Positions 25,168 to 60,588 of a stretch of DNA of 64,000 nt are shown one piece after another. This DNA comes from Escherichia coli (GTDB lineage Bacteria; Pseudomonadota; Gammaproteobacteria; Enterobacterales; Enterobacteriaceae): NCBI RefSeq assembly GCF_050920415.1, contig NZ_CP169309.1. One strand, 5' to 3'. Below the pieces are notes generated by a model. That model did not search any database, was not told the origin of the DNA, and was given only the letters and a program-made list of their open reading frames with translations. Every line of letters starts with the position of its first letter. Position 1 is the stretch's first letter. A program made the position numbers and the translations under genes.

Positions 25168-25176
25168 GCTCTTTCC

Positions 25177-28100
25177 TTATTCAAACAGGGCTTCAATATC
25201 GTTAATCAACTCGCTGGCGGTGATGTCATCGAGTGCGGAGAACTGCGCTTCCTGTGTTGAATGACTCCCCCAGCCATAGCTTTCTGCTTTGCCTTCCCAT
25301 AGCCACAGCTTGCTTAAGAGTTGCTCGGCACTGAGTTCGGCTGGCGACATACCAACTGCAAATCCTTCATCGATTTCCATGATTAATGACCAGCGGCCCA
25401 GAGGTTTGATCATCCAGCCGATCCAGCCACCGTCCTGCGGTTCACCACGCATCCAGCCTTTATTCGCCAGCCCCATTACCCGACCGCTCGGGCATTTTCT
25501 GCCTGCCCAGCGGGTCAATTCGCTGGCATTGCGCTCGGTTTCTGTCAGGGCATAACTGTTGCGGTCGAGCTGGCGGAACGGCGGTAACAGCTCGTAGTCG
25601 GCAAAAAGCTGACCAAAGGCGGCGGCATCCGTCGGTGATATTTCCAGAACGTGAGGAATACCAATAGAGATATCGCCTTCCGGCAGGGTGAAAAGATCAT
25701 CGTCAGCGGTGCTGTAGCTGTTATCTTCCGCCACACGGAAGCACGCCAGTAACTGGTTGTCTGCGCTATAAATGCCCCAAATCAGACGGCGGGTTAAGTG
25801 GCAGACCAGCGGATGCTCAACCAGAAAGAGCTGAAAGTTTTCCGGCGACCAGCGGCGGCGCAGGCACATGGCGGATTCCAGCCTTGCCACCTGCTGGGCG
25901 GCAACGGTACGCGCATCTTTTTTCAGCAGTTTGTAGCGGTTAACTGCATCGTTCGCTTGGGTTTCATCATCGCTTTTGTTCGGTTTAGGCAAGTCTTTCA
26001 GGCGGCTGCCGGAAACATCGCGCACAAACGGTTTTAAGGTTTCATCAAAGCTGACGGTGAACTGCCGTGGGCCAAAATCCAGCAGCAGCGAACCGTTATC
26101 ATCCAGACCGAGATCCGGTGCTAACCGGTCTTCAAGCTCCGCCACCGTGAGTTCGCGGCTCTCGGCAATGTCGGCAATTTTTTCTTTTGCCCGCTCCTGT
26201 AATGCTTTGAATTTCAGTTTCTGGGCGATGCCGTTAAGCTGCATCAGGGCGATATCACTACCGATAGCAGCGAGGATATCCAGCCCGACGGTGGCGCGTT
26301 TATGCTGGGATTCACCAGGCCAGGCGCGGATTAATGGCGTCAGTTTGCGGGCGGTGTCATCGTTGCCAAGAACACCTAATGCAGTGAACGCCCAGCTCTC
26401 TTTCGACGGCGCGCCAGCGGTCTCCCAGGCGGTAAACAGATCCCAGGCAAACTCAGCCAGTGAGTCGGCAGTACAGGCGTCTTTCACCTGTAATAACCCC
26501 GGATACAGCGTATCTTCCTGAGGGAAGCGAAGCATTTCACCGAGGTGGAAGAGGGCGCTATCTGGCAGTGATTGGGCGTTTGCTTTTAATACCGGGCGCG
26601 TCCAGAGCGATGGCTGATAAAAGGCCGGAAGAGTGGGGATTTTTGTCGGGTGATTATCTAAGGGATCGAGCGCTAGCAGAGCGTTCACCGCGTCTGTTAC
26701 TTCCGGCTGGTTATAACGCCGGGCGATTTCTTGCAATAATGGCTGATGACCGTTTTCTGTAAGCATACGCAAGGCAGCGCGGGCGTTGTCCTGCGCTTCA
26801 CCGGCTTTGCCGAGCGCCGCGGGCAGCAGGCCGGTAATGGCGTGTTCCGGGTATTTCAGCAGCCAGCTACGGGCGTCTTGTCGTAGGGTTTTGAGTTTGT
26901 TGAAGGCGCGGGCGACGGCAGGAGCCAGCTCACTCGCTGCGAAGTAATTCGTTATGGGCAAGGCTTCCTGTGGATAGCGTGCAAGTGAGTTTACTAACCC
27001 AGGTAATCCTTTGAGTCCAAAATGTAACATGGCGTATTCGGTATCGGTATGCGGAGATACAGTAAGGGCATTCCATGCTCTTATTGCTTTCTCCAGCGGC
27101 AATGTTGTCAAAATCCCCAAATGCCAATAATGCCCGGTAGGTGAATGAAACACCTTAAATTCACTTATTAAGGTTGCATAATCTTCATTTAGCCATGCCT
27201 CAACTACCGCTTCGGGAGCTTTAATATATGTACCAGCGATCCGTCGTTGAAAACCCATCCTTGCCAACAGATTGGCAGTACTTTCTTCATGACTAACCGT
27301 GATGTGTTTTGAATACCAGATATATTTCGCCAAAAGTTGATTACTGATTTCTTCTGTCAGATAACTGATTGGCTCAATGCCTAATGGTGCTAAATCAAGC
27401 ACCGGAATCGACGATTTTTTCTTTTTCGAAAGCCATGGTGGGGAGACTACTATGGCCGGCAGTAGATCGGTGCTGGCATGGTTTGAGGGCTGTGTCAGTT
27501 GTTGCTGGCATGATTTCAGCACTGCAGCTGCGGGTGTCGAAAGCCAGGGAATGACCTGTTCTGCCAGTGCTGGTTGCGAGATAAGCATCGTCATTAGCAT
27601 AATGCGCCAACTATTCTCTTCTTTTTGCACTAGAAGTTCCGCCAGTGCTGCCAGTGCTGCGTGTGGGAACGCAGCGCAGGCTTTCGTCATTCGATCGTGA
27701 CAGCGTTTAGTATGCCCGGCTACACGTATAAGCAGTGTTAATGCGAACGGATGATTGATATGACGCAACACATCGGCGCAGTAGTCACTTGCGGCATAGG
27801 GAGCAAATCGGGGCAGGGCTGCAACACCTTGCTCCTGTAATACGGTGGCTGACCATATCGCACCACAATAGTAATCATCAAAAATGGCATATGGCTCGTG
27901 ATATTTTTCTAATGAGGCAAGAATGTGCTCATCAGTCGCCACTATTTTTAGCCACTCAAGCGAGGGTAATTTTTTTTTCCCCAGTAGACGCTGGGCAATT
28001 TCATGTGCAATTTCTGGTTTTTCGGGTAATAACATAGCAATTAATGGTTGCCGCCATTCTGGAATATGTGGAATTGCGGCAATAAGTTTTTGTGCACATT

Positions 28101-28971
28101 TTTGCCAGAGAGACTCTTCCGCCAGTGATAAATGTTTCCGTAGGCGTAATTCAAAACTGGAATATTGCTGCAAGTTATCAGGTGCAATGCCAGACGGCAG
28201 AATAATAATGATATTATTCGCATAATTCCATTCAATATCAATCTGTTGAAGGTGTATTATTACATCAGTAGCATATTCCAGACCGCCTTCCTGAATGATC
28301 TGATCCATAACATCCTCACGCACTTTATATCTTGTGCATTTCATTTCAAGTGCCGTGAGTACAGCCATTACTGGTGATGGTAACTGTGTTGTTTTCAGGC
28401 AGTCGATCTGACTGATCGCCTGGGCGACGGTGTTTTGCCATACTAAAGAACAGGCGCTGAAGTCAAATGTGGCTGTTTTATTATCCCGTTGCGACACGCT
28501 ACAGGCTAAGCGACGTAACTGGGTCAAGTTGTCTGCTTGCTGAACAGGAACTCCGGGAAAGCGGCGATGGCTTAACGTGGTGTGTACAACTTCGGGCGGA
28601 AAAACGACAGCAATATCTTTCGCCAGCCACGGTAAAACATCATCTGTATTTTTGTCAGCCACACGGGCTTCTGCTACGCAAAAGGGTTGTTCCTGAATAA
28701 TGGTGGATAAGGCCGCTACCTTGAGAGAATCCGTTACCGTTTGGGAAGGTTGCAAAGAATTATCCTTCGCTTGCTCCACATACCCCTTCTTCACCTTCTC
28801 CGCAATCAGCCTCAGTTCCGCTTTTTCCGCCGCCGCAGCATCAGCAAAGCTTTTTACCTGGCTTTGCCCGTTGGTACTGACTTTGCCCCAACTAATATGC
28901 AGCTCGTTTCCCTGTTGCTCCACTGCCCAGAATTTATGTGATTTTTCGTCCTGATAAATATAGGTTTTCAT
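25177..28971 (-). CDS. molR: MolR-family protein with N-terminal WGR-like domain (intact; recalled as a pseudogene in K-12)
   Basis: 1264-aa ORF; N-terminus MKTYIYQDEKSHKFWAVEQQGNELHISWGKV; 12 nt downstream of the upstream paralog. Confidence 0.8.
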   Translation of the reverse strand: MKTYIYQDEKSHKFWAVEQQGNELHISWGKVSTNGQSQVKSFADAAAAEKAELRLIAEKVKKGYVEQAKDNSLQPSQTVTDSLKVAALSTIIQEQPFCVAEARVADKNTDDVLPWLAKDIAVVFPPEVVHTTLSHRRFPGVPVQQADNLTQLRRLACSVSQRDNKTATFDFSACSLVWQNTVAQAISQIDCLKTTQLPSPVMAVLTALEMKCTRYKVREDVMDQIIQEGGLEYATDVIIHLQQIDIEWNYANNIIIILPSGIAPDNLQQYSSFELRLRKHLSLAEESLWQKCAQKLIAAIPHIPEWRQPLIAMLLPEKPEIAHEIAQRLLGKKKLPSLEWLKIVATDEHILASLEKYHEPYAIFDDYYCGAIWSATVLQEQGVAALPRFAPYAASDYCADVLRHINHPFALTLLIRVAGHTKRCHDRMTKACAAFPHAALAALAELLVQKEENSWRIMLMTMLISQPALAEQVIPWLSTPAAAVLKSCQQQLTQPSNHASTDLLPAIVVSPPWLSKKKKSSIPVLDLAPLGIEPISYLTEEISNQLLAKYIWYSKHITVSHEESTANLLARMGFQRRIAGTYIKAPEAVVEAWLNEDYATLISEFKVFHSPTGHYWHLGILTTLPLEKAIRAWNALTVSPHTDTEYAMLHFGLKGLPGLVNSLARYPQEALPITNYFAASELAPAVARAFNKLKTLRQDARSWLLKYPEHAITGLLPAALGKAGEAQDNARAALRMLTENGHQPLLQEIARRYNQPEVTDAVNALLALDPLDNHPTKIPTLPAFYQPSLWTRPVLKANAQSLPDSALFHLGEMLRFPQEDTLYPGLLQVKDACTADSLAEFAWDLFTAWETAGAPSKESWAFTALGVLGNDDTARKLTPLIRAWPGESQHKRATVGLDILAAIGSDIALMQLNGIAQKLKFKALQERAKEKIADIAESRELTVAELEDRLAPDLGLDDNGSLLLDFGPRQFTVSFDETLKPFVRDVSGSRLKDLPKPNKSDDETQANDAVNRYKLLKKDARTVAAQQVARLESAMCLRRRWSPENFQLFLVEHPLVCHLTRRLIWGIYSADNQLLACFRVAEDNSYSTADDDLFTLPEGDISIGIPHVLEISPTDAAAFGQLFADYELLPPFRQLDRNSYALTETERNASELTRWAGRKCPSGRVMGLANKGWMRGEPQDGGWIGWMIKPLGRWSLIMEIDEGFAVGMSPAELSAEQLLSKLWLWEGKAESYGWGSHSTQEAQFSALDDITASELINDIEALFE

Positions 28972-28983
28972 TGCTAAATCCTT

Positions 28984-31900
28984 TTAATCAAACAATGATT
29001 CAATGTCGTTAATCAGCTCGCTGGCGGTGATGTCGTCGAGCATGGAAAAAGTAAGTAAAGGTTGTTTACCGTAGCGATCATCTGGCGAGGTGATTTTTAC
29101 GCTTTCAACAGGTAACAGGTCGCCATAACCTGTTTCACCATAAATTAATGAAAAATGTTCTGTTTCAAGTTCGAGATCGCCATAAGGGGTAGATTTGCGC
29201 ATCGCATAGACGCTGCCGCTTTCTTCCAGACGTTGCCAGCCTCGGCGCTCTAGCCCGACAATACGTCCGGCCTGACAGAGCTGTCCTTGCCAGCGTGTCA
29301 GGTCGTGGGTATTCCGTTCATTATCAGCAAGACGATAACTACCACGATCGAGCTGTTGGAAGGGGGGAAGCAGTTCGTAATCAGCGTAAATTTGCCTGAA
29401 TGCAGCGGCAGATTCAGGGGGGATCTCCAGCACATGCGGTATACCGATGTTTCCTGCTGGCAGCGTGAATAACTCATCCTGCGCATCGCTGTAAGTGCTG
29501 TCTTCTGCGACCCGGAAGCAGGCAATCAGCGTGTTTTCCTCAGTATATACTCCCCATAACAGCCGTCGGGTTAAGTGACGTACCAGCGGATGCTCCACCA
29601 GAAACAGGCGGAACTGTTCTGCCGTCCAGCGTCTGCGCTGGCACATAGCCTGCTCCAGACGATCAATCTGCTGACTGGCAATGGCGCGCACATCTTTCTT
29701 CAATTGTTTGAAGAGGTTAACGGCGTCAGTTGCCAGTGTTTTATCATCGCTCTGATTTGGTTTGGGTAAATCTTTCAGGACTTTGCCGTTTGCATCGCGC
29801 ACTACAGGTTTTAAGGTTTCGTCAAAAACAACGGTGAATTGACGTGGGCCGAAATCCAGTATCAGCGAGCCACTGCTATCAAGCCCTAAATCTGGAGCCA
29901 GGCGGTCTTCCAGTTCAGCCATAGTCAGCCCACGGTTTTCAGCAACTATGTTGATTTTCTCGCGGGCATGTTCCTGTAATGCAACGAATTTAATCTTTTT
30001 CGCAATGCCATTAAGCAGCATTAGCGCAACATCGCTGCCAATATCAGCTAATACATCCAACCCGGACACCGCCCGTTTATGCTGTGATTCCCCAGGCCAG
30101 GCACGGATAAGCGGGGTTAATTTACGCGCGGTGTCGTCATTGCCTAAAATCCCCAGCGAAGTAAATGCCCAGTTTTCTTTTGCGGGTGCGCCAGCTTCTG
30201 TCCAGGCGGTATACAGATCCCAGCCAAAGTCAGCCAGTGATTCGCGAGTGAAGGTTTCTTTGATGATCTCCAGCCCAGCGTAGGCGGTAATGTCGCGAGG
30301 AAAGCTCAGCATAGTGCCCAGGTGGCGCATAGCGTCATCTGGTAGAGGCAGGTTGTTACTTTTAAGCCGTGGTCTGCGCCATAAGGTGAACTGATAAAAG
30401 CCGGGCAGTGGGGCGATTTTTGCGGGATATTCTTCCAGAGGATCGCTATCAAATAATGTTGCCAGCGCAGCTAAAACATCAGGTTGATTATATCCTTGCG
30501 CGATTTTCTCAATCGTTTCTCGCTGGTTTAATTTCACTAGCAGTCGGAGCGCCTGGCGGGCATATTCCCGATTTTGGCACGGTTTGCCCAGCGCCAAAGG
30601 CAGTAGCCCGGCGGCGGCATGGCGCGGGTTATTTGCCAGCCAATTAACGGCATCCTTGTAAGCCATTTTTTTCTGTAACCGCTGCGCCATTGGTAAGGCT
30701 AGTTCACTGGCCCCAATAAAGAGGGTGAATATCCACAGTCGTTGATGATCTCGTTGCAAGCAGGTCATAAACGCAGGAATGGCCGTACTACCAAAAACTG
30801 CCAGAATCTCTTTCTCACCTGAATATCGCTCCTCAATGATTATTTGGTTGAGAAATGAAATCGCCTGTTGTCCCGGTAAGTAACAAAGCGCAGATAAATT
30901 CCAGCTTTTGTTGGCATTGTTGTGATATTTCGCAAACTCAGCTTTTAGTGCTGGAAAATCAAAGCGCAACAAGGCATCAACAGCGCTTTGCGGTATGTGT
31001 TTTTTTTCATGTAAGTCATCTTCGCAATGCAGCCATTCATTAAAACCTAATTGCCAAAGGATTTGTTGTTCTGGTGTAAAAGGAATGAAAGATGTCTCCC
31101 AGCTTTCTTTTTCAATTAGTGGTAGGTCGGTAAATAAGGTTTGCTGTGATGCCTGATATTTCGCGATTTCACTGAATCTGGATATGTCAGTGTGACTGAT
31201 TAACTCTGTAATTCCAGGTGTGATGTCAGTGACGGAAGGGATGGGAAGTACCGGTAAATCAAATACGGGTATTACATTCTTTTTCTTATTTATTGCCCAC
31301 GGTGGAGCGACAAGCAGCTCTGGCAACATATCCGCAGTGGCATACTCATATTCTTCAGCTACTGACTGAGGACGACATTCAGATAAGATGCCTGCCGCTT
31401 TAGCATTAACCCAGGGAATGACGTCGCGTACTAATTCTGGCGTGACGGTAATCAGTTTGACAAGCGCTTTACGCCACTCTTTGTCTTCATGTATTGCCAG
31501 CAAAGTAGCATAAGCGGCAATAGCCGCAGCGGGATGTTTTTGGCAGGCTTTGCTTAAGTATTCCAGGTGCTTTTTCTTGCCATTTACACCGAGGATCAGA
31601 ATTTGAATCGCATCCGGGTGATTCGTTTTCCATAGCCATTTGACAAGATCTTCAGTCTCGCTGATGCGCTCGAAGAGATAAGTGGGATTGTCAGAATGCT
31701 CTTCCACAAACTCAGTAAGTATCCGGCTTACACCGCGCCCCCCATTATTTGCCAGCAACATTGCCAGATAAGCGCGAAAATCACGATACAACGGTGGGAA
31801 GTCGTATTTTTCTGCTGTAGTCAGAGCTATATCATCGGTTACTACCAGTCTTAACCAGGTTATCGCCGGAACGTTTTGGTCTGCATAATGTAGCGCCATA

Positions 31901-32781
31901 GCATTGGCAATATCCGGGCGTTCAGGGAGCAGTAACGCGGCAAAAGGTTGCCGTGCTGGGGATAGCGTCGGAATAGCAGTAAGCACTTTATCCACACAGC
32001 GTTGCCACTCATCTTCTGAAGCGAGTGAAAGATGATGACATAGACGTTGATGCCAACTCGGTAGCGATTCTGCTTCGTGATTAGGTGGAATGATGGTGGT
32101 TACTGCGCCTTTTACTGGTTTATATTTGAGTTGAAGAGCGAGAAGGGCGATTTCAACGGCACTTTCCAGACCACAGCGAATGACTAAGTCATCGACCAGT
32201 TCATCTTGAGAGTAAGAGTTCCAAAAGCCCCAGAGCAATGCTGCATCAGATTGCGCACTCCCTGTCGGTTGATTACCCTGAACTCGCATTTGTAACTCAG
32301 CAAAAGCCTGCTGCCAGTTTTCTGGATAAGAGCGGTAATTATTGTCGGGGTCATATGCCCTCGTGTTATTCGCGATGCGCTTCCATATTTGGCCATCTTT
32401 GTGCAGATAATTGATATCTCTGGGGCGAGAGCGATGTGGAAAAGCAAATCGGTTAATATCGTCGGTTAGCGGAATGGCTGCATCATCAGCCAGCCATGGG
32501 CGTTTGTTTTTACTCTCAGGTGAAGTTTCAACGTCAGGAGTGACTTTGGTGACGGGGGGGATATGCACGTTTGCCGAAGCGTCTTCCACATAGCCTTTTT
32601 TCGTTTTCTCAGCGATAAGCTTCAGTTCCGCTTTTTCCGCCGCCGCAGCATCCGCAAAGCTTTTTATCTGGCTTTGCCCTTGGGTGCCAACTTTTCCCCA
32701 ACTGATATGCAACTCGTTACCTTGCTGCTCCACCGCCCAGAATTTATGTGATTTTTCGTCCTGATAGATATAACTCTTCAT
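28984..32781 (-). CDS. second MolR-family paralog with N-terminal WGR-like domain
   Basis: 1265-aa ORF; first ~65 aa and last ~25 aa nearly identical to the 25177..28971 paralog, central region diverged. Confidence 0.8.
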   Translation of the reverse strand: MKSYIYQDEKSHKFWAVEQQGNELHISWGKVGTQGQSQIKSFADAAAAEKAELKLIAEKTKKGYVEDASANVHIPPVTKVTPDVETSPESKNKRPWLADDAAIPLTDDINRFAFPHRSRPRDINYLHKDGQIWKRIANNTRAYDPDNNYRSYPENWQQAFAELQMRVQGNQPTGSAQSDAALLWGFWNSYSQDELVDDLVIRCGLESAVEIALLALQLKYKPVKGAVTTIIPPNHEAESLPSWHQRLCHHLSLASEDEWQRCVDKVLTAIPTLSPARQPFAALLLPERPDIANAMALHYADQNVPAITWLRLVVTDDIALTTAEKYDFPPLYRDFRAYLAMLLANNGGRGVSRILTEFVEEHSDNPTYLFERISETEDLVKWLWKTNHPDAIQILILGVNGKKKHLEYLSKACQKHPAAAIAAYATLLAIHEDKEWRKALVKLITVTPELVRDVIPWVNAKAAGILSECRPQSVAEEYEYATADMLPELLVAPPWAINKKKNVIPVFDLPVLPIPSVTDITPGITELISHTDISRFSEIAKYQASQQTLFTDLPLIEKESWETSFIPFTPEQQILWQLGFNEWLHCEDDLHEKKHIPQSAVDALLRFDFPALKAEFAKYHNNANKSWNLSALCYLPGQQAISFLNQIIIEERYSGEKEILAVFGSTAIPAFMTCLQRDHQRLWIFTLFIGASELALPMAQRLQKKMAYKDAVNWLANNPRHAAAGLLPLALGKPCQNREYARQALRLLVKLNQRETIEKIAQGYNQPDVLAALATLFDSDPLEEYPAKIAPLPGFYQFTLWRRPRLKSNNLPLPDDAMRHLGTMLSFPRDITAYAGLEIIKETFTRESLADFGWDLYTAWTEAGAPAKENWAFTSLGILGNDDTARKLTPLIRAWPGESQHKRAVSGLDVLADIGSDVALMLLNGIAKKIKFVALQEHAREKINIVAENRGLTMAELEDRLAPDLGLDSSGSLILDFGPRQFTVVFDETLKPVVRDANGKVLKDLPKPNQSDDKTLATDAVNLFKQLKKDVRAIASQQIDRLEQAMCQRRRWTAEQFRLFLVEHPLVRHLTRRLLWGVYTEENTLIACFRVAEDSTYSDAQDELFTLPAGNIGIPHVLEIPPESAAAFRQIYADYELLPPFQQLDRGSYRLADNERNTHDLTRWQGQLCQAGRIVGLERRGWQRLEESGSVYAMRKSTPYGDLELETEHFSLIYGETGYGDLLPVESVKITSPDDRYGKQPLLTFSMLDDITASELINDIESLFD

Positions 32782-47207: not shown

Positions 47208-48146
47208 TTCCTCGCGGGTTGGCGCGCAATCACCGCCGCGATGCCCGACAACCCACGACGCCACTGCATTGCCCAGCAATACGGCATCCGCCAGTGGCAA
47301 ACCAGAGGCCAGTCCAGCTAATACGCCACCTGCATGACTGTCGCCCGCCCCAATGGTGTCTACAACTTGCGTTGGAAATGCCGGGATGCAGCCAGAAGCG
47401 TTATTGCTGAAATACCATGCGCCTTCTTTATCCAGACGAACGATCAACGGCGCGGCAAATTTCTCCTGCCATTGCTTGCCAAGTGTTGTTATCTCTGCTG
47501 ATAAAGCAAAACGTTCGGCGGCAATCTCAACCTCCTGACGATTGAGTGACACTAAAGGTCGACAGGCCATGATTCGCGCCAGTAATGCATCCGGGATATC
47601 GCCAATACGTGGGCCAAAATCGATGAACGGCGTCACGTCTTGCAGACTCTCCAGCCATTCCACTAACAATTCACCGCAGGGCGAGGCCAGTTGATAACCG
47701 GAAAAATAGAGCAGGCTGCCAGGCGCAACGGTTAATCGCGCCAACCATTCGCGATTCCACTGATTTTCCACACCACTGAACGACATAAACGTGCGTTCAC
47801 CATCAGGCTCAACCAGCGCCAGACACCAGCCGTTATCGCCTTCGGCGTTATCGATGAGGCTGATTAATCCTTCTTTCGCCATCCGGTTACGAATAATTTC
47901 CGCCCACACACCCTGGCCGAGCGGCAGGGCATTACCCGCTTCGATACCGAGGCGATTTAACGCCACGGCAATATTCAGTGCACAGCCGCCAACGTTAACG
48001 CTCTGCTGTTTCAGTTCGATATCGCACCCACGCCAGGGTAGGGCATAAGCGTCGGCGATCACATCAATGACCGCCGCGCCGACGACCATCACCGGCTGAC
48101 GCGTGGTTAATTCAGGCAGCAGCGTGTGTAATCGAGCGCCGCTCAT
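47181..48146 (-). CDS. yegV: PfkB-family carbohydrate/nucleoside kinase
   Basis: 321 aa; ribokinase-like motifs (GG dipeptide, DTxGAGD); 3' end overlaps the yegW 3' end convergently. Confidence 0.8.
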   Translation of the reverse strand: MSGARLHTLLPELTTRQPVMVVGAAVIDVIADAYALPWRGCDIELKQQSVNVGGCALNIAVALNRLGIEAGNALPLGQGVWAEIIRNRMAKEGLISLIDNAEGDNGWCLALVEPDGERTFMSFSGVENQWNREWLARLTVAPGSLLYFSGYQLASPCGELLVEWLESLQDVTPFIDFGPRIGDIPDALLARIMACRPLVSLNRQEVEIAAERFALSAEITTLGKQWQEKFAAPLIVRLDKEGAWYFSNNASGCIPAFPTQVVDTIGAGDSHAGGVLAGLASGLPLADAVLLGNAVASWVVGHRGGDCAPTREELLLTHKNV

Positions 48147-49147
48147 ACCGCCTCCCGTTGTTGGCGATACTTTGCCAGCGCCGTGGCATAATGATTAAAA
48201 TCAAGCTGATTTACCGCATCCAGCTCCGTCTTAAACGCAGGATCGATAGCGTTAACGCCATGCAATGCGCCGCAAATCGCCGTCGCCATAGCGCCGATGG
48301 TGTCTGTGTCGCCGCCAAGGTTAGCGCACAGGATGGCGCAACGGTTCGGGTCGGTTTGTGCCAGTTCAACCAGCGCAATGGCGCACGGAACGGACTCAAT
48401 AGTACTGGTACCTGCCCCAACCACCTGATACAGCTGTTCGCTGGCGGATTCGGTGCCGTCGGCATTGCGCACAATTTTCAGCGCAATCTCCAGACGTGCT
48501 GCCAGTGAGGCGCTGAAGGTAGTGATGCGTTTTTGCTGTGCATGTCGCGCAATCGAGGGTAGAGAATCAACAATCGCTGACCAGCTTTCTCCGTCAATGG
48601 CACGGGAAATCGCCCATGCGATGACTACTGCACCTGCCACCGCCAGATCGGATTTATGGGTCGGGCTGGACGCCAGCGCCACATCATCAATAAAGGAATC
48701 AACATCGCGCGCCGGAAGCAAACAACCTAATGGCGAGACGCGCATCGCTGCGCCGTTGGTCACGCCATTGTTTTCCAGTTCAGCAACGGGTTTACCGTCG
48801 CGAATGGCGTTAAGCGCAATCTTCGAAGTTGGGCCAAGCACGTTTTTGTTAAAGGCGTTGAAACGCAGCGCCCAGTCGAGAATATTACGCCCAATCAGAT
48901 CCGGATCAATCTCGCCTTCACGTTCCAGTAACGCATCAGCCAGGCAAAGAGCCATTGAGGTATCGTCGGTAAATTCGGCGCGGTTAAAATAACAGGCCGC
49001 GTTATTCTCCTTTGGTCCAGGCAGAAAACGGTCAATCCAGCCAAAGTGTGCTTTAACGCGGCTGCGTGGCCAAAGCTCGGAGGGCATCCCCATCGCATCC
49101 CCTAACGCCTGCCCATAAAGAGCACCGAGAATACGTTCTGTTTTCAT
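48143..49147 (-). CDS. yegU: ADP-ribosylglycohydrolase-family protein
   Basis: 334 aa; start overlaps yegT stop, stop overlaps yegV start. Confidence 0.8.
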   Translation of the reverse strand: MKTERILGALYGQALGDAMGMPSELWPRSRVKAHFGWIDRFLPGPKENNAACYFNRAEFTDDTSMALCLADALLEREGEIDPDLIGRNILDWALRFNAFNKNVLGPTSKIALNAIRDGKPVAELENNGVTNGAAMRVSPLGCLLPARDVDSFIDDVALASSPTHKSDLAVAGAVVIAWAISRAIDGESWSAIVDSLPSIARHAQQKRITTFSASLAARLEIALKIVRNADGTESASEQLYQVVGAGTSTIESVPCAIALVELAQTDPNRCAILCANLGGDTDTIGAMATAICGALHGVNAIDPAFKTELDAVNQLDFNHYATALAKYRQQREAV

Positions 49148-50421
49148 TTAACTTCCCCTTGTGTCAACGCAATATCGCGATCATCGACCTTGATAGCCGT
49201 AATTTCGTTGTCGGATTCGCGGAAAAAAATCATGAACAGCACGGCGATAATGGCAATCATCACCGCGCCGAAAGTCCACATCCCGGACCAGTTGAAAGTC
49301 AGTCCGTTTACCGGTTCCGGATAAGCGAACATCTTTTCCATCATCACACCGCCAAGACGATAGCCGAGCAAACTGCCGAATCCCTGGCAGCAGAGCGTGA
49401 TCAGCCCCTGCGCAGCGGTACGCATATGCACGGGGGCTTTTTTATCGACATAGATGTAAGCGGTAACGTAGTAAAAATCGTAACTTACTCCATGCAGCAA
49501 AATGCCGAGGAACAGTAACGCGTAGGTGAAATATTCATCCGCACTACCGTAAATAAAGAAGCCATAGCGGATCGCAGCGGTGACCAGACCAAGTAATAAT
49601 ACCTTTTTGATACCAAAGCGTTTGGTAAAAAACGGCAATGCCAGCATAAAGAAGATTTCAGAGAACTGGCCGAGCGTCATCCAGCCGGTGGCGTTTTTCA
49701 TGCCGACTTCTGTCAGATAACCGTTGGCAAAGATGTAATAGAACGCCAGTGGCATCGCAAACAGGAATGAACAGAAGAAAAAGACGAGGAAGTTTTTATC
49801 GCGTAGCAGGATCAGCGCATCCAGGCCGAGCATGACTTTAATGTCCATTTTGCCGGTGCTTTTTGGCGGCGTGTCGGGCAGGAAAAACGCAAACACACCG
49901 AGCAGAGCAGAACTTCCGGCGGTAATCAGCAGCGGGATGTTAGTCGGAGAGATATCGGCATAACCCAGCATTTGCGGCAAAAATCCACATGCCAGACCGG
50001 AGGCAATCCAGCCGATAGTGCCCATCACACGAATGCGTGGGAAATCACGCTCCACATCCGGCACGTTGGCAAAAGCGATACTGTTAGTCAGCGCAATGGT
50101 CGGCATATAGGTTAGCGAGTAGGCCAGCAGTAACGGGAAGAACCCGGCAAAAGTGGTCTGTTGCGCAGCGAAATACATCAGCGCCGCACCAGCGAACATC
50201 AATACCGCCAGCACTTTCTGCGCCGAGAAAAAGCGGTCAGTGATGGAGCCAACCAGAATTGGCGACAGGATCGCCGCAATGGCGGTACAGGCATACGACC
50301 AGCCAATTTCTCCGGCACTAAAACCGCTTTTACTTAACCACAACCACAATGGCACAAACCACGCGCCCCAGATAAACCATTCAACAAACATCATGAACGA
50401 CAGCTTTGCTGTTGTTTTCAT
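49144..50421 (-). CDS. yegT: MFS nucleoside:H+ symporter-family transporter
   Basis: 425 aa, multi-TM; first gene of yegTUV. Confidence 0.8.
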   Translation of the reverse strand: MKTTAKLSFMMFVEWFIWGAWFVPLWLWLSKSGFSAGEIGWSYACTAIAAILSPILVGSITDRFFSAQKVLAVLMFAGAALMYFAAQQTTFAGFFPLLLAYSLTYMPTIALTNSIAFANVPDVERDFPRIRVMGTIGWIASGLACGFLPQMLGYADISPTNIPLLITAGSSALLGVFAFFLPDTPPKSTGKMDIKVMLGLDALILLRDKNFLVFFFCSFLFAMPLAFYYIFANGYLTEVGMKNATGWMTLGQFSEIFFMLALPFFTKRFGIKKVLLLGLVTAAIRYGFFIYGSADEYFTYALLFLGILLHGVSYDFYYVTAYIYVDKKAPVHMRTAAQGLITLCCQGFGSLLGYRLGGVMMEKMFAYPEPVNGLTFNWSGMWTFGAVMIAIIAVLFMIFFRESDNEITAIKVDDRDIALTQGEVK

Positions 50422-50677
50422 CTTTTAATTCCTTCATGACAGGTAATGTAAGGTACGCGATGACAATACCATTTAATAATACCTTTTAAATACCTTTGCG
50501 GTGAAAACTTGACCGCGGTAACATTTTTTCTGATGAATCGAGCCAACAGAAAACGCTGAAAAAACATCCAAAAGATGGAAAAACTCGCCTGTAACGACCA
50601 GGATTATGATTGCCCGCAAAAGGCGGGCCAGGACAATCCATAGCCGATATCCAATCGGAATTTACGGGAGCATAGTA

Positions 50678-51730
50678 ATGACAGATATTGCGCAGTTGCT
50701 TGGCAAAGACGCCGACAACCTTTTACAGCACCGTTGTATGACTATTCCTTCTGACCAGCTTTATCTCCCCGGACATGACTACGTAGACCGCGTGATGATT
50801 GACAATAATCGCCCGCCAGCGGTGTTACGTAATATGCAGACGTTGTACAACACTGGGCGTCTGGCTGGCACAGGATATCTTTCTATTCTGCCGGTTGACC
50901 AGGGCGTTGAGCACTCTGCCGGAGCTTCATTTGCCGCTAACCCGCTCTACTTTGACCCGAAAAACATTGTTGAACTGGCGATCGAAGCGGGCTGTAACTG
51001 TGTGGCGTCAACTTACGGCGTGCTGGCATCGGTATCGCGGCGTTACGCGCATCGCATTCCATTCCTTGTCAAACTTAATCACAACGAGACGCTAAGTTAC
51101 CCGAACACTTACGATCAAACGCTGTATGCCAGCGTGGAGCAGGCGTTCAACATGGGCGCGGTGGCGGTTGGCGCGACCATCTATTTTGGCTCGGAAGAGT
51201 CACGTCGCCAGATTGAAGAAATTTCTGCGGCTTTTGAACGTGCGCACGAGCTGGGCATGGTGACCGTGCTGTGGGCCTATTTGCGTAACTCCGCCTTTAA
51301 GAAAGATGGCGTCGATTATCACGTTTCGGCTGACCTGACCGGCCAGGCTAACCATCTGGCGGCAACCATAGGCGCAGATATCGTCAAACAAAAAATGGCG
51401 GAAAATAACGGCGGCTATAAAGCGATTAATTACGGTTATACCGACGATCGCGTGTACAGCAAGTTGACCAGCGAAAACCCGATTGATCTGGTGCGTTATC
51501 AGTTAGCTAACTGCTATATGGGCCGGGCAGGGTTGATAAACTCCGGCGGTGCTGCAGGCGGTGAAACTGACCTCAGCGATGCAGTGCGTACTGCGGTCAT
51601 CAACAAACGCGCTGGCGGAATGGGGCTGATTCTTGGACGTAAGGCGTTCAAGAAATCGATGGCTGACGGCGTGAAACTGATTAACGCCGTGCAGGACGTT
51701 TATCTCGATAGCAAAATTACTATCGCCTGA
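50678..51730 (+). CDS. fbaB: class I fructose-bisphosphate aldolase
   Basis: ORF 50606..51730; start at ATG 50678 ([16 protein letters not shown]...), 350 aa. Confidence 0.9.
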
Positions 51731-51749
51731 TACGCCTCATACGAACAGC

Positions 51750-51885
51750 ACTACCCCGTAGGGCGGATAAGGCGTTCACACCGCATCCGGCAACCTATGC
51801 CTGATGCGACGCTGAAGCGTCTTATCATGCCTACACAGCGCTGCCCCGTAGGCCGGATAAGGCGTTCGCGCCGCATCTGACATAA
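51750..51885. repeat. REP/BIME elements
   Basis: Two copies of the gccggataaggcgttc(a/g)c(a/g)ccgcatc palindrome family between fbaB and gatY. Confidence 0.8.
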
Positions 51886-52035
51886 AACAACGTGCACTTT
51901 GTTACGGCTTCCCCCGGGAGGCCGTTTTTATTGCCTGTCATTCTGGATTGATTTTCATATTGTCTTTTTTGTGATCGATATCGCGACATTTGGAAACAAA
52001 AAATTTCATTATATTTTGAAATCGAAAATAAATAA

Positions 52036-54193
<2,158 letters not shown>

Positions 54194-54202
54194 GGACGGT
54201 AT

Positions 54203-54655
54203 ATGACTAACCTGTTTGTTCGTAGCGGAATTTCTTTTGTCGATCGTAGCGAAGTTTTAACCCATATCGGTAATGAGATGATCGTGAAAGGTGTGGTTCA
54301 TGAAACCTGGCCACAGGCATTAATTGCCAGAGAAGCAGAATTCCCCACCGGGATAATGCTTGAACAGCACGCCATTGCAATACCGCATTGTGAGGCGATT
54401 CATGCTAAGTCGTCAGCCATTTATCTGTTAAGGCCAACAAATAAAGTTCATTTTCAGCAAGCGGATGATGATAGCGACGTGGCGGTATCGTTGGTTATTG
54501 CGTTGATTGTGGAAAATCCGCAGCAGCAATTGAAACTTTTACGCTGTTTATTTGGCAAGTTACAACAGCCCGAGATCGTCGAGACACTAATCACTCTTCC
54601 TGAAACCCAGTTAAAGGAATATTTCACAAAGTATGTTTTAGATTCAGACGAATAA
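54203..54655 (+). CDS. gatA: galactitol PTS EIIA
   Basis: 150 aa. Confidence 0.9.
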   Translation: MTNLFVRSGISFVDRSEVLTHIGNEMIVKGVVHETWPQALIAREAEFPTGIMLEQHAIAIPHCEAIHAKSSAIYLLRPTNKVHFQQADDDSDVAVSLVIALIVENPQQQLKLLRCLFGKLQQPEIVETLITLPETQLKEYFTKYVLDSDE

Positions 54656-54685
54656 ATCCCTCTGTAACAATAAAAAGGACTATTT

Positions 54686-54970
54686 ATGAAACGCAAGATT
54701 ATTGTCGCTTGCGGAGGCGCGGTTGCGACCTCTACGATGGCGGCGGAAGAAATTAAAGAGTTGTGTCATAGCCATAATATCCCCGTTGAATTAATCCAGT
54801 GTCGGGTTAATGAAATAGAAACCTATATGGATGGTGTACATCTTATTTGTACTACCGCCAGAGTTGACCGCAGTTTTGGCGATATTCCGTTAGTTCACGG
54901 CATGCCTTTTGTTTCTGGTGTCGGTATCGAAGCATTACAAAATAAAATTCTGACTATCTTACAGGGGTGA
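54686..54970 (+). CDS. gatB: galactitol PTS EIIB
   Basis: 94 aa; N-terminal Cys ([12 protein letters not shown]). Confidence 0.9.
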
Positions 54971-54973
54971 CCT

Positions 54974-56329
54974 ATGTTTTCAGAAGTCATGCGTTATATT
55001 CTCGACCTCGGCCCTACGGTCATGTTGCCGATTGTCATCATTATTTTTTCTAAGATATTAGGCATGAAGGCAGGCGATTGCTTTAAAGCGGGTCTGCATA
55101 TCGGGATTGGCTTTGTTGGCATTGGCCTTGTGATTGGCTTAATGCTGGATTCCATTGGTCCGGCGGCGAAAGCGATGGCGGAAAATTTCGACCTGAATCT
55201 GCATGTGGTCGATGTCGGCTGGCCGGGCTCTTCACCAATGACCTGGGCGTCGCAAATTGCGCTGGTGGCGATTCCGATTGCGATTCTGGTTAACGTGGCG
55301 ATGCTACTGACCCGTATGACGCGGGTGGTAAATGTTGATATATGGAATATCTGGCATATGACCTTCACCGGCGCATTGCTGCATCTGGCAACCGGTTCAT
55401 GGATGATAGGGATGGCGGGTGTGGTAATTCACGCGGTGTTTGTTTATAAGCTCGGCGACTGGTTTGCCCGCGATACCCGAAATTTCTTTGAGCTGGAAGG
55501 CATTGCTATTCCGCACGGTACGTCGGCGTATCTGGGGCCAATTGCGGTGCTGGTGGATGCTATCATCGAGAAAATCCCAGGCGTTAACCGTATTAAATTT
55601 AGCGCCGACGATATTCAGCGCAAATTTGGCCCATTTGGCGAACCTGTCACCGTGGGCTTTGTGATGGGGCTGATTATCGGCATCCTCGCGGGTTACGATG
55701 TCAAAGGTGTATTGCAGCTGGCGGTAAAAACGGCGGCAGTTATGCTGCTGATGCCACGGGTGATTAAACCCATCATGGATGGTTTAACGCCCATCGCTAA
55801 GCAGGCCCGTAGTCGTTTACAGGCGAAGTTCGGCGGTCAGGAGTTCCTGATTGGCCTTGATCCGGCGTTGCTGCTGGGGCATACGGCGGTGGTATCGGCA
55901 AGCCTGATTTTTATCCCGCTCACCATTTTAATTGCTGTTTGTGTTCCGGGTAATCAGGTACTGCCGTTTGGCGACCTTGCCACCATCGGCTTCTTTGTTG
56001 CGATGGCAGTTGCCGTGCATCGTGGAAATCTGTTCCGCACCTTAATCTCGGGTGTCATCATTATGAGCATCACCCTGTGGATCGCGACGCAAACTATTGG
56101 TTTGCACACCCAACTGGCGGCTAATGCTGGGGCGTTAAAAGCCGGGGGCATGGTGGCTTCAATGGATCAGGGCGGTTCTCCCATTACCTGGTTACTGATT
56201 CAGGTTTTCTCCCCGCAAAATATTCCCGGTTTCATTATTATCGGTGCCATTTATCTTACCGGTATTTTCATGACCTGGCGTAGAGCGCGCGGCTTTATTA
56301 AACAAGAGAAAGCCGTTCTCGCAGAATAA
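54974..56329 (+). CDS. gatC: galactitol PTS EIIC permease
   Basis: 451 aa polytopic membrane protein. Confidence 0.9.
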   Translation: MFSEVMRYILDLGPTVMLPIVIIIFSKILGMKAGDCFKAGLHIGIGFVGIGLVIGLMLDSIGPAAKAMAENFDLNLHVVDVGWPGSSPMTWASQIALVAIPIAILVNVAMLLTRMTRVVNVDIWNIWHMTFTGALLHLATGSWMIGMAGVVIHAVFVYKLGDWFARDTRNFFELEGIAIPHGTSAYLGPIAVLVDAIIEKIPGVNRIKFSADDIQRKFGPFGEPVTVGFVMGLIIGILAGYDVKGVLQLAVKTAAVMLLMPRVIKPIMDGLTPIAKQARSRLQAKFGGQEFLIGLDPALLLGHTAVVSASLIFIPLTILIAVCVPGNQVLPFGDLATIGFFVAMAVAVHRGNLFRTLISGVIIMSITLWIATQTIGLHTQLAANAGALKAGGMVASMDQGGSPITWLLIQVFSPQNIPGFIIIGAIYLTGIFMTWRRARGFIKQEKAVLAE

Positions 56330-56376
56330 TTTTTACCTGAGGGGGAGTTTATCCCCCTTAATAATCAGGAGTTTTT

Positions 56377-57417
56377 ATGAAATCAGTGGTGAATGATACT
56401 GATGGTATCGTACGCGTTGCCCAACGAGTCATTCCTGAAATTAAACATCAGGATGAGGTGCGGGTAAAAATTGCCAGCTCGGGATTATGTGGTTCCGATT
56501 TACCCAGAATTTTTAAAAATGGTGCACATTATTATCCAATAACGTTAGGCCATGAATTTAGCGGCTATATTGATGCTGTGGGATCCGGTGTTGATGATTT
56601 ACATCCTGGCGATGCGGTTGCCTGTGTGCCGTTATTACCCTGTTTTACTTGTCCAGAGTGTCTGAAAGGGTTTTATTCCCAGTGCGCAAAATATGATTTT
56701 ATTGGCTCACGGCGGGATGGTGGGTTTGCCGAATATATTGTCGTTAAGCGGAAAAATGTCTTTGCTCTACCTGCGCATATGCCTATTGAGGATGGGGCTT
56801 TTATTGAACCGATTACCGTTGGCCTGCATGCTTTCCATTTAGCGCAAGGTTGTGAGAATAAAAACGTTATTATTATTGGTGCCGGAACCATTGGCCTGCT
56901 GGCCATTCAGTGCGCTGTCGCGCTGGGAGCAAAGAGTGTGACGGCTATCGACATTAGCTCAGAAAAACTGGCACTGGCAAAATCTTTCGGTGCGATGCAA
57001 ACATTTAACAGCCTTGAAATGAGCGCGCCGCAAATGCAGGGCGTTTTACGCGAGCTGCGCTTTAATCAGCTTATCCTCGAGACGGCTGGCGTCCCGCAAA
57101 CCGTCGAACTGGCGGTAGAGATTGCCGGGCCTCATGCCCAGCTGGCGCTGGTGGGCACGTTGCATCAGGATCTGCATATAACATCGACAACGTTTGGCAA
57201 AATATTACGTAAAGAGCTGACGGTTATCGGCAGTTGGATGAACTACTCCAGCCCTTGGCCGGGGCAGGAGTGGGAAACGGCGAGCCGGTTGCTGACAGAA
57301 CGTAAGTTAAGCCTGGAGCCATTAATCGCTCACCGTGGAAGCTTTGAAAGCTTCGCCCAGGCGGTGCGTGACATCGCTCGTAATGCTATGCCGGGCAAAG
57401 TGTTGCTTATTCCCTGA
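56377..57417 (+). CDS. gatD: galactitol-1-phosphate 5-dehydrogenase (Zn-dependent)
   Basis: 346 aa; MDR-family Zn-ADH motifs (GHEFSG; GAGTIGL). Confidence 0.9.
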   Translation: MKSVVNDTDGIVRVAQRVIPEIKHQDEVRVKIASSGLCGSDLPRIFKNGAHYYPITLGHEFSGYIDAVGSGVDDLHPGDAVACVPLLPCFTCPECLKGFYSQCAKYDFIGSRRDGGFAEYIVVKRKNVFALPAHMPIEDGAFIEPITVGLHAFHLAQGCENKNVIIIGAGTIGLLAIQCAVALGAKSVTAIDISSEKLALAKSFGAMQTFNSLEMSAPQMQGVLRELRFNQLILETAGVPQTVELAVEIAGPHAQLALVGTLHQDLHITSTTFGKILRKELTVIGSWMNYSSPWPGQEWETASRLLTERKLSLEPLIAHRGSFESFAQAVRDIARNAMPGKVLLIP

Positions 57418-57516
57418 AACCGCGGGCCAGCGTGATGCTGGCCCGGTATTGTGCAAAACAGATCATTCACCAATGGTCCCCCTTCGTTTACACTAGCCAC
57501 AATTGAATATGGGTAA

Positions 57517-58296
57517 ATGACGATGAATTCATTCGAGCGAAGGAATAAGATCATCCAATTAGTGAATGAACAGGGAACCGTGCTTGTTCAGGATCTGGCG
57601 GGAGTATTTGCTGCCTCGGAAGCGACAATCCGTGCCGATTTGCGCTTTCTCGAACAAAAAGGCGTGGTTACGCGCTTTCATGGCGGTGCGGCGAAAATAA
57701 TGTCCGGTAATAGTGAAACCGAGACCCAGGAAGTCGGGTTTAAAGAGCGATTTCAGCTCGCCAGCGCGCCGAAAAACAGAATAGCGCAGGCGGCAGTCAA
57801 AATGATCCACGAAGGGATGACCGTTATTCTCGACAGCGGAAGTACGACAATGCTTATCGCCGAAGGTTTAATGACCGCCAAAAATATCACGGTGATTACC
57901 AACAGTCTCCCGGCGGCGTTTGCCCTTTCCGAAAATAAAGACATTACTCTGGTCGTCTGTGGTGGCACGGTCCGTCATAAAACGCGCTCGATGCATGGCT
58001 CCATTGCCGAGCGTTCATTGCAGGATATTAATGCCGATTTAATGTTTGTCGGTGCTGATGGTATTGATGCGGTTAATGGTATTACGACCTTTAATGAAGG
58101 TTATTCGATTAGCGGTGCGATGGTCACAGCCGCTAATAAAGTGATTGCCGTTCTCGATTCATCGAAATTTAACCGTCGCGGTTTTAATCAGGTACTGCCA
58201 ATCGAAAAAATTGATATTATTATTACTGATGATGCCGTGTCAGAGGTGGATAAACTGGCATTGCAGAAAACACGGGTGAAATTAATTACGGTGTAG
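57517..58296 (+). CDS. gatR: DeoR-family repressor of the gat operon (uninterrupted)
   Basis: 259-aa continuous ORF with N-terminal DeoR HTH; no IS sequence within it. Confidence 0.85.
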   Translation: MTMNSFERRNKIIQLVNEQGTVLVQDLAGVFAASEATIRADLRFLEQKGVVTRFHGGAAKIMSGNSETETQEVGFKERFQLASAPKNRIAQAAVKMIHEGMTVILDSGSTTMLIAEGLMTAKNITVITNSLPAAFALSENKDITLVVCGGTVRHKTRSMHGSIAERSLQDINADLMFVGADGIDAVNGITTFNEGYSISGAMVTAANKVIAVLDSSKFNRRGFNQVLPIEKIDIIITDDAVSEVDKLALQKTRVKLITV

Positions 58297-58307
58297 CATT
58301 GTTCTTT

Positions 58308-58342
58308 ATGCCGGATAAGGTGTGTACACCGAATCCGGCATC
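58308..58342. repeat. REP element
   Basis: gccggataaggtgtgtacaccgaatccggca palindrome between gatR and yegS. Confidence 0.7.
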
Positions 58343-58377
58343 ACTGATACTCCCTGAATTAAGAAAGGGAAATTTGA

Positions 58378-59277
58378 TTAACGCAATAATGGACAATCCG
58401 GTGGTAATCGACAGCGCAATGCTGCCGGAAGTATTTCAATATGGAAGTTTTGCCCACTCAACGGTTCGCCATCAAGATTAAAGGTAATTTCGTGTGGCGC
58501 TTGTATATCGAACCACGCCGAAGCACCTTCGATAATATTCGGGTTATCTTCGTCAGATTTTAAGGTTGATACGAGAGCCGGAAGAATTTCATCGCCGGTG
58601 AAAATGCGTAGTTGCAGCAAGCCGTCGTTAATTAATGCGTTCGGGCACAATTGCTGACCGCCACCTGCCTGACGGCCGTTACCAATACCAATGACTAGTG
58701 CGTCACCTTGCCAGTGAAAGTTTTCACCGCGGATTTCACAACGGTCCGGTTGCAGTGTATCCATGCGCATTAAGCCGTGAATGATGTAAGAGACGCCACC
58801 CAGCGCTGCTTTTAATTTTTCCGGCGTTTCTGTGGTAATACGTGTCCCAAACCCACCCGTTGCCATATTAATAAAACAGGTTTGTTTGTTGACCTGCGCC
58901 ATATCAATCGCAATAGCGTCACCAGCAATTGCTAGTTTCAGCGCCTTATCCAGTGCCTCAGGTATACCCACGCTGGTCGCGAAATCGTTCGCTGTACCTA
59001 GTGGCAAAATCCCCAGCGCGGGTATGTCATCGCCCTCACACTGAATCAGCGCCGAGGAAACTTCATTAATAGTGCCATCGCCACCACCGGCAATTACCGT
59101 TGCGACGCCCAGCTTCCGGGCCTCTTCTACAAATCGGGCGGCATCGCCTTTCTCCCAGGTGACCCGCACATGGATCGTCATTCCTTCCTCGCGCAACAGC
59201 ATAATTGCTTCGCGCAAGGGTTGATTGTCAGTACTTTTGCCGTTAAGAATCAGTAAGCTGGCGGGAAATTCTGCCAT
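58378..59277 (-). CDS. yegS: lipid kinase (DAGK catalytic-domain family)
   Basis: 299 aa; translation matches recalled YegS. Confidence 0.85.
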
Positions 59278-59759
59278 AATCGTATGCCTTTATGATTGGT
59301 CTGTAGATAGTGTAGAGCAGAAAAGAAAAGGCGGAGTCAGAACAGGATGAAAATCGGAGGATAAAAAATCAGTTCAAGGATGGGGAATTCAGTGGTTACC
59401 AGTAAGGGGGGCAACGGTACACTCGGTTTTTATCGGCATAAATGATCACTGAAAGCACTTAAGCATTATTTTACTGTGGATTCAGCGTGGCAGCGAACAT
59501 TAACGGTAATCAGGGACAAACTTCAAAAGAGCATATGCATCATATTCAACAAAGCAATGGCATCCTCAATGTACGATTCCAATTATATTAAATAATTCCT
59601 ATGAGGTTATCTGTGATAGGCCTCCATGTCTGTATTTCCTACTTATGTAGGAAATTCTGCACAAAACATTTATTATAATCCTATTCAATAATGACAATGA
59701 TGTCATTATTATATTTCAACACTAGAGAGTGTCGTTGGTGTTTAATGGGGGAAGGTGAG

Positions 59760-60077
59760 ATGAAAAAGACAGCTGCTATATCATTAATTAGTGTTTTTCT
59801 TATGTCTGGTTGTGCTGTGCATAATGATGAGACAAGTATCGGTAAATTCGGTCTTGCCTATAAAAGTAATATCCAGCGTAAACTCGATAACCAATACTAC
59901 ACTGAAGCCGAAGCATCTTTAGCCAGGGGCAGAATATCTGGTGCGGAAAATATAGTGAAAAATGATGCAGCTAATTTCTGTGTTACTCAGGGCAAAAAAA
60001 TGCAGATAGTTAACCTGAAGACTGAAGGGGCAGGATTACATGGCGTCGCGCGTCTGACATTCAAATGTGGAGAGTGA
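59760..60077 (+). CDS. yegR: small lipoprotein, 105 aa
   Basis: ORF 59691..60077; start at ATG 59760 (MKKTAAISLISVFLMSGC, lipobox MSGC). Confidence 0.75.
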   Translation: MKKTAAISLISVFLMSGCAVHNDETSIGKFGLAYKSNIQRKLDNQYYTEAEASLARGRISGAENIVKNDAANFCVTQGKKMQIVNLKTEGAGLHGVARLTFKCGE

Positions 60078-60417: not shown

Positions 60418-60504
60418 AAAAAATAAGCCCGTGTAAGGGAGATTACACAGGCTAAGGAGGTGGTTCCTGGTACAGCTAGCATTTTATGGGTTATGTTTTT
60501 CAGC
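60418..60504 (-). ncRNA. cyaR: CyaR (RyeE) Hfq-dependent sRNA
   Basis: Reverse complement of 60418..60504 reads gctgaaaaacataacccataaaatgctagctgtaccaggaaccacctccttagcctgtgtaatctcccttacacgggcttatttttt, matching recalled CyaR including its terminator hairpin and U-tail. Confidence 0.85.
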
Positions 60505-60588
60505 GAAACGGATGATAACCTTAATAAATGCAGCTGTATGTGATCGGTTTCTAAGAATTTTCCATCCGGGAAAAATAATCGAAATTAA

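Follow-up and report, generated by a model that had tools for sequence, protein, structure and literature searches.

Does a gatR gene that reads through without interruption tell us how its strain regulates galactitol use, and does it tell us whether that strain lies outside the K-12 lineage? The insertion in K-12 gatR has been documented since the 1990s. An initial annotation of the Escherichia coli DNA analyzed here (a single stretch of 64,000 nucleotides, referred to below as the window) had proposed that its gatR is free of any such insertion, implying repressible galactitol catabolism and marking the source as a non-K-12-like lineage. We examined the gene, its presumed targets and its surroundings with both questions in mind.

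The gatR gene and its product

A single open frame of 259 codons with an ATG start occupies positions 57517..58296 on the plus strand, both in the list of open reading frames and by direct reading, as had been described. In the near-identical genomes MFDS1022581 and N96, PGAP places the start of gatR at the second ATG, 57523, six bases after 57517; mapped onto the window, these coordinates give a RefSeq-style coding sequence at 57523..58296 (plus strand, 774 nt, 257 amino acids plus stop). The two fragments of MG1655 gatR also sum to 774 nt, matching the 257-aa form. The SrlR and AgaR family profiles begin to align at residue 3 of the 259-aa form, which favors the second ATG, and a GGG read at 57511-57513 stands 9 nt before 57523 and only 3 nt before 57517, a spacing that would suit the later start better. 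The two in-frame codons ATG ACG at 57517..57522 (plus strand), which supply the first ATG in the list of open frames, are an alternative start that is probably unused. It seems likely that 259 codons represent the maximal open frame and 257 amino acids the protein; the choice of start codon leaves the finding of an intact gatR unaffected.

The product belongs to the DeoR/GlpR family, as both defining Pfam domains are present: in the 259-aa form, HTH_DeoR (PF08220) matches residues 8-60 with 60.5 bits (cut-off 21; E = 1.3e-16), and the DeoRC sensor domain (PF00455) matches residues 85-238 with 174.2 bits (cut-off 31.8; E = 2.5e-51). Two more specific names, those of the best family hits, were tried and rejected, namely AgaR (equivalog NF040755, 232.9 bits, below the cut-off of 260) and SrlR (226.3 bits, below the equivalog cut-off of 350). 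NCBIfam has no model specific to GatR, and the name GatR is therefore taken from the E. coli gene, with which the window gene shares its protein sequence and its synteny. The gene lies directly after gatD (56377-57417) on the same strand and is convergent with yegS (58378-59277, minus strand), and the order gatD-gatR-yegS is common to every E. coli record examined, including HS, WG1, MG1655 and MFDS1022581. Judged by this identity and synteny, we regard the protein as the GatR orthologue.

Comparison with the interrupted K-12 allele

In the RefSeq annotation, MG1655 gatR (b4498) is a pseudogene whose two pieces, 299 and 475 nt long, lie on either side of a 1,258-bp IS3E with insE5 and insF5, which bears out what the initial annotation had said of the laboratory K-12 lineage. 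As the reference for alignment we joined the two pieces, removing IS3E and one copy of the 3-bp GAC duplication, to give a 774-nt frame. Window positions 57523-58296 aligned with this frame at 774/774 positions without gaps, and the alignment revealed no frameshift or internal stop in the window gene, either of which would have overturned the initial annotation. The two differ by 15 substitutions in 774 nt, all at codon position 3 and with 0 amino-acid changes. Since about 23% of the possible single-base changes in gatR are synonymous, the probability that 15/15 random changes would be so is ~3e-10; gatR has therefore been kept under purifying selection.

The MG1655 junction sequences and the fragment lengths of 299 and 475 nt place the target site of IS3E, GAC, at 57819..57821 on the plus strand. 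There GAC occurs once in the window, within GGGATGACCGTTATT. The K-12 insertion point corresponds to window 57821/57822, where the sequence is GGGATGAC before the point and CGTTATT after it. In MG1655, IS3E stands right after the target GAC, following codon 100 of the 257-aa frame, and a second copy of GAC is found beyond the far end of the element. With its target site empty, the window gatR is an allele other than the MG1655-type gatR::IS3E. The absence of IS-like sequence in or near the gene was likewise borne out: a search of all 64 kb for the IS3 terminal repeat, with as many as 3 mismatches allowed, gave 0 matches; a repeat scan found no IS-like terminal inverted repeats flanking gatR; and the annotation of the closest genome, MFDS1022581, shows no transposase across its equivalent 64 kb.

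Expected regulation of galactitol catabolism

At the nucleotide level the window gatR matches that of strain N96 exactly; the N96 product is annotated as WP_001295426.1, which is the same GatR accession as in E. coli HS and K-12 WG1. Compared with GatR of HS, WG1 and the reconstructed MG1655, the window protein has 0/257 amino-acid differences; the gatR genes of HS, WG1 and MG1655 minus the IS are mutually identical at the DNA level. Sousa et al. (2017) replaced the MG1655 pseudogene with HS gatR and thereby restored regulation of the gat operon (PMC5850726). The same study states that the IS-interrupted allele leads to constitutive gat expression, as the initial annotation had it, and reports that fresh IS insertions in gatR arose in mice. 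A 2026 preprint also describes MG1655 gatR as broken by IS3E and gat as constitutive, and found a strong effect of CRISPRi silencing of the intact gatR in LF82 and CFT073, fitting active repression (bioRxiv 10.64898/2026.01.05.697630).

The presumed targets of GatR, gatYZABCD, occupy 52048..57417 on the plus strand and are all full length in the MFDS1022581 annotation: gatY (52048-52902), gatZ (52931-54193), gatA (54203-54655), gatB (54686-54970), gatC (54974-56329) and gatD (56377-57417). Each equals its HS counterpart in length, and none has an internal stop; gatC, a frameshifted pseudogene in MG1655, is intact here. Because GatR is identical to the HS allele that restored regulation, and because the six structural genes are full length, we strongly infer that galactitol catabolism is repressible in the strain from which the window derives. 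Regulated galactitol use is to be expected of this strain, in contrast to MG1655, a difference relevant to gut-colonization experiments; constitutive gat expression is strongly counter-selected in gut colonization (PMC5850726).

The circuit that we envisage is simple. GatR would be produced from a small transcription unit of its own, directly 3' of gatYZABCD, and its HTH domain is predicted to bind the gat promoter region and so hold the galactitol PTS and catabolic operon off. Binding of a galactitol-derived sugar phosphate (presumably the inducer) in the DeoRC domain would release GatR and permit inducible PTS uptake and catabolism of galactitol. Statements about the inducer and the operator of GatR rest on knowledge of the family. 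With the repressor and six structural genes intact, use of galactitol would be inducible, in contrast to the constitutive gat expression of MG1655-type laboratory K-12.

An intact open frame may still be silent or decaying, for instance through lack of transcription or an inactivating missense change. The presumed gatR promoter and leader lie in the gatD-gatR intergenic region (57418..57522, plus strand), and a scan of 57350-58450 for sigma-70 and terminator consensus sequences gave no match upstream of gatR and chance-level sites inside the gene only. The missing promoter consensus would fit a silent gene, as would the nearest genome, MFDS1022581: it has A rather than G at window position 58051, which changes Gly177 in the sensor domain to Ser (G177S, WP_224666194.1), so missense variants of gatR do segregate. 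However, the window carries the consensus Gly177 and encodes a protein identical to that of the allele that was tested functionally, and its upstream region is identical to that of the tested allele (105/105 nt shared with HS and K-12). A silent gatR is, in our judgment, very improbable. We consider the window gatR to be, with high probability, an ordinary functional wild-type gene of a non-laboratory E. coli, in which inducible galactitol use is to be expected.

The gatD-gatR intergenic region also contains a G+C-rich hairpin just after gatD, GGGCCAGC-GTGAT-GCTGGCCC, at 57424-57444.

The gatY promoter region

We also examined the target side of the circuit by means of a four-strain alignment and a repeat scan. 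The promoter-proximal region of gatY (51930..52047, plus strand) includes a CRP-like TGTGA-N6-motif. At 52003-52022 it has an inverted repeat, ATTTCA-N8-TGAAAT, which together with an adjacent AT-rich core is invariant in all 4/4 strains compared. This inverted repeat is the sole candidate for an operator. The upstream regions of gatY and gatR have no k-mer of 7-9 nt in common in either orientation, fewer than in shuffled controls, and therefore provide no sequence evidence for a shared operator or for autoregulation of gatR.

Further upstream, the fbaB-gatY intergenic region (51731-52047) contains REP elements and a match to the Rfam family naRNA4 at 51761-51831. The second REP upstream of gatY is 12 bp longer in the window and N96 than in K-12 and HS.

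In the last ~120 bp before gatY, the window has approximately 10 substitutions relative to HS and K-12, several of them around the CRP-like TGTGA site. Together with the REP difference, these changes mean that the target side of the circuit is not identical to the one tested in HS and K-12. It could be argued from the same substitutions and the 12-bp REP indel that gatR is intact but that regulation is unlike the HS/K-12 type, repression having become tighter, leakier or lost through the diverged gatY promoter. However, the ATTTCA-N8-TGAAAT repeat and its AT-rich core are invariant in the four strains, and the record of 0 amino-acid versus 15 synonymous changes in GatR argues that the repressor is still in use. 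We therefore think such a change in regulation improbable, and retain the reading of ordinary, inducible control. A related proposal, to which we assign a low probability but a slightly less remote one, is that the promoter changes and the complete extra REP, combined with a conserved GatR, might give the strain a set-point for galactitol induction, or a catabolite control, different from that of HS and K-12. If true, the altered set-point would be a case of natural cis-regulatory variation in a circuit on which selection in the gut is known to be strong and fluctuating.

Distribution of intact gatR and the question of lineage

The frequency of the intact state was estimated by comparing a 984-bp query that spans gatR with 5,426 complete E. 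coli genomes. The query was matched in 5,109 of them, with no match in ~317. The region was contiguous, defined as one place covering at least 80% of the query, in 4,756/5,426 genomes (~88%), and the query matches were split in 353. A 95-nt probe across the MG1655 gatR/IS3 junction, counted at coverage of at least 80%, was covered in 357/5,426 genomes, close to the number with split matches. The junction matches listed, all at 100%, are ER1709, an MG1655 record, C600, WCHEC035053S1G0 and ME8067, at least four of these five being laboratory K-12 strains. Intact gatR is the norm for the species, at roughly 88%, and the interrupted gene is essentially a feature of laboratory K-12. The finding of an intact gatR is thus already known and ordinary.

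WG1, an early F+ lambda+ stock of K-12 (PMC9997739), bears directly on what the intact state says about ancestry. Its gatR (NZ_CP099590.1, 29318-30091) is uninterrupted and nucleotide-identical to that of MG1655 minus IS3E, and its gatC is intact too. The segment from gatY to yegS is 1,263 bp shorter in WG1 than in MG1655, which matches the summed lengths of IS3E, the 3-bp duplication and the 2-bp gatC frameshift. Since both genes are intact in WG1, gatR::IS3E and the gatC frameshift arose during laboratory propagation within K-12. The insertion is consequently not a marker of K-12 as such, this early stock being without it, and is better read as indicating the MG1655/W3110 laboratory branch. 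It follows from WG1 that an intact gatR alone cannot exclude K-12 ancestry, and from the 4,756/5,426 genomes with an intact region that gatR integrity discriminates lineage very little.

The initial annotation had taken the uninterrupted gene as the mark of a non-K-12 lineage. As an argument this fails, given WG1 and the census; as a conclusion it stands, on other evidence. Identity between the window and MG1655 is 95.9% over 47242-57821, 93.5% over 57819-59401 and 86-87% around yegR. The PR-X remnant (ogrK/yegZ), present in both MG1655 and WG1, is absent from the window, and just 9 SNPs across the whole 64 kb separate the window from E. coli MFDS1022581, an animal-food isolate from South Korea. 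An intact gatR would also be seen in a K-12 relative free of the insertion from the start, such as the early stock WG1, whose gene is nucleotide-identical to that of MG1655 minus IS3E, and gatR would then be silent as to lineage. However, there are 15 sites in gatR at which the window departs from K-12 and WG1, the flanks diverge by 4-6.5%, the PR-X remnant of those strains is missing, and the sequence is nearly identical to MFDS1022581; the divergence figures rule out an early K-12 relative as the source of the window, and we give that origin practically no weight. From the flank divergence of 4-6.5%, the absence of PR-X and the near-identity to MFDS1022581, the window sequence is clearly non-K-12.

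Neighboring loci and other genomes

Several observations were made on the surroundings of gatR. Between the convergent gatR and yegS lies a REP-like hairpin (58308..58341, no strand assigned), an inverted repeat with 16-nt arms 2 nt apart that reads ATGCCGGATAAGG...CCGAATCCGGCAT. In the 81-bp spacer between gatR and yegS there are 14 substitutions. Nucleotide identity to HS is 98.1% for gatR (0 amino-acid changes), 92.9% for yegS (58378-59277, minus strand) and 93.4% for yegR (59760-60077, plus strand), and this jump in divergence suggests that the 3' end of gatR marks the boundary of a mosaic segment or of a recombination event. Of the 128 aa of the mechanical open frame at 59691-60077 (plus strand), the annotation keeps the last 105 codons, at 59760-60077, and calls the product a yegR-like hypothetical protein; the N-terminal extension is probably spurious. 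A gene for the sRNA CyaR is found at 60421-60506 (minus strand, 100.7 bits). The cryptic prophage remnant PR-X (ogrK, yegZ) adjoins cyaR in MG1655 and WG1; HS is without it, as is the window.

At some distance from gatR, 21517-32781 (minus strand) holds three large tandem paralogous DUF4132 genes of ~1,216-1,265 aa each, all intact, beside yehLMPQ (ATPase, VWA, SWIM). One of the three is a frameshifted pseudogene in K-12 WG1, and the number of DUF4132 gene copies appears to vary among strains. BL21(RP) provides a different kind of gatR break (NZ_CP084683.1, 3908-4549): its gene is without the 5' end, cut at the equivalent of window position 57748 and joined beside a truncated tynA, which indicates a chromosomal rearrangement unrelated to the IS3E event of K-12.

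Comparison with known systems

Among solved structures, sequence search found the C-terminal domain of DeoR (PDB 7l6l) as the sole relative and no structure of GatR itself. The alignment with the sensor domain of GatR covers residues 83-254, with E = 1.9e-11. DeoR, the repressor of the deoxyribose operon, is a distant paralogue of GatR with a different effector and operon. AgaR and SrlR (GutR-type), repressors of other E. coli sugar operons, have a two-domain architecture in common with GatR and align with it over the full length (232.9 and 226.3 bits, respectively); however, neither score reaches its equivalog cut-off (260 and 350, respectively), and both proteins are paralogues that control operons other than that of GatR.

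The closest counterparts are the genes of HS and WG1 (WP_001295426.1), which share with the window the same 257-aa protein, the same position between gatD and a convergent yegS, and the same 105-bp upstream region. They differ from it by the 15 synonymous nucleotide changes, by divergence of 2-7% in neighboring genes and at ~10 positions in the gatY promoter. MG1655 gatR::IS3E (b4498) encodes the same protein as the window once the IS and one GAC are removed. However, MG1655 carries the 1,258-bp IS3E with its GAC duplication, constitutive gat expression and a frameshifted gatC, whereas the window has an empty target site and an intact gatC.
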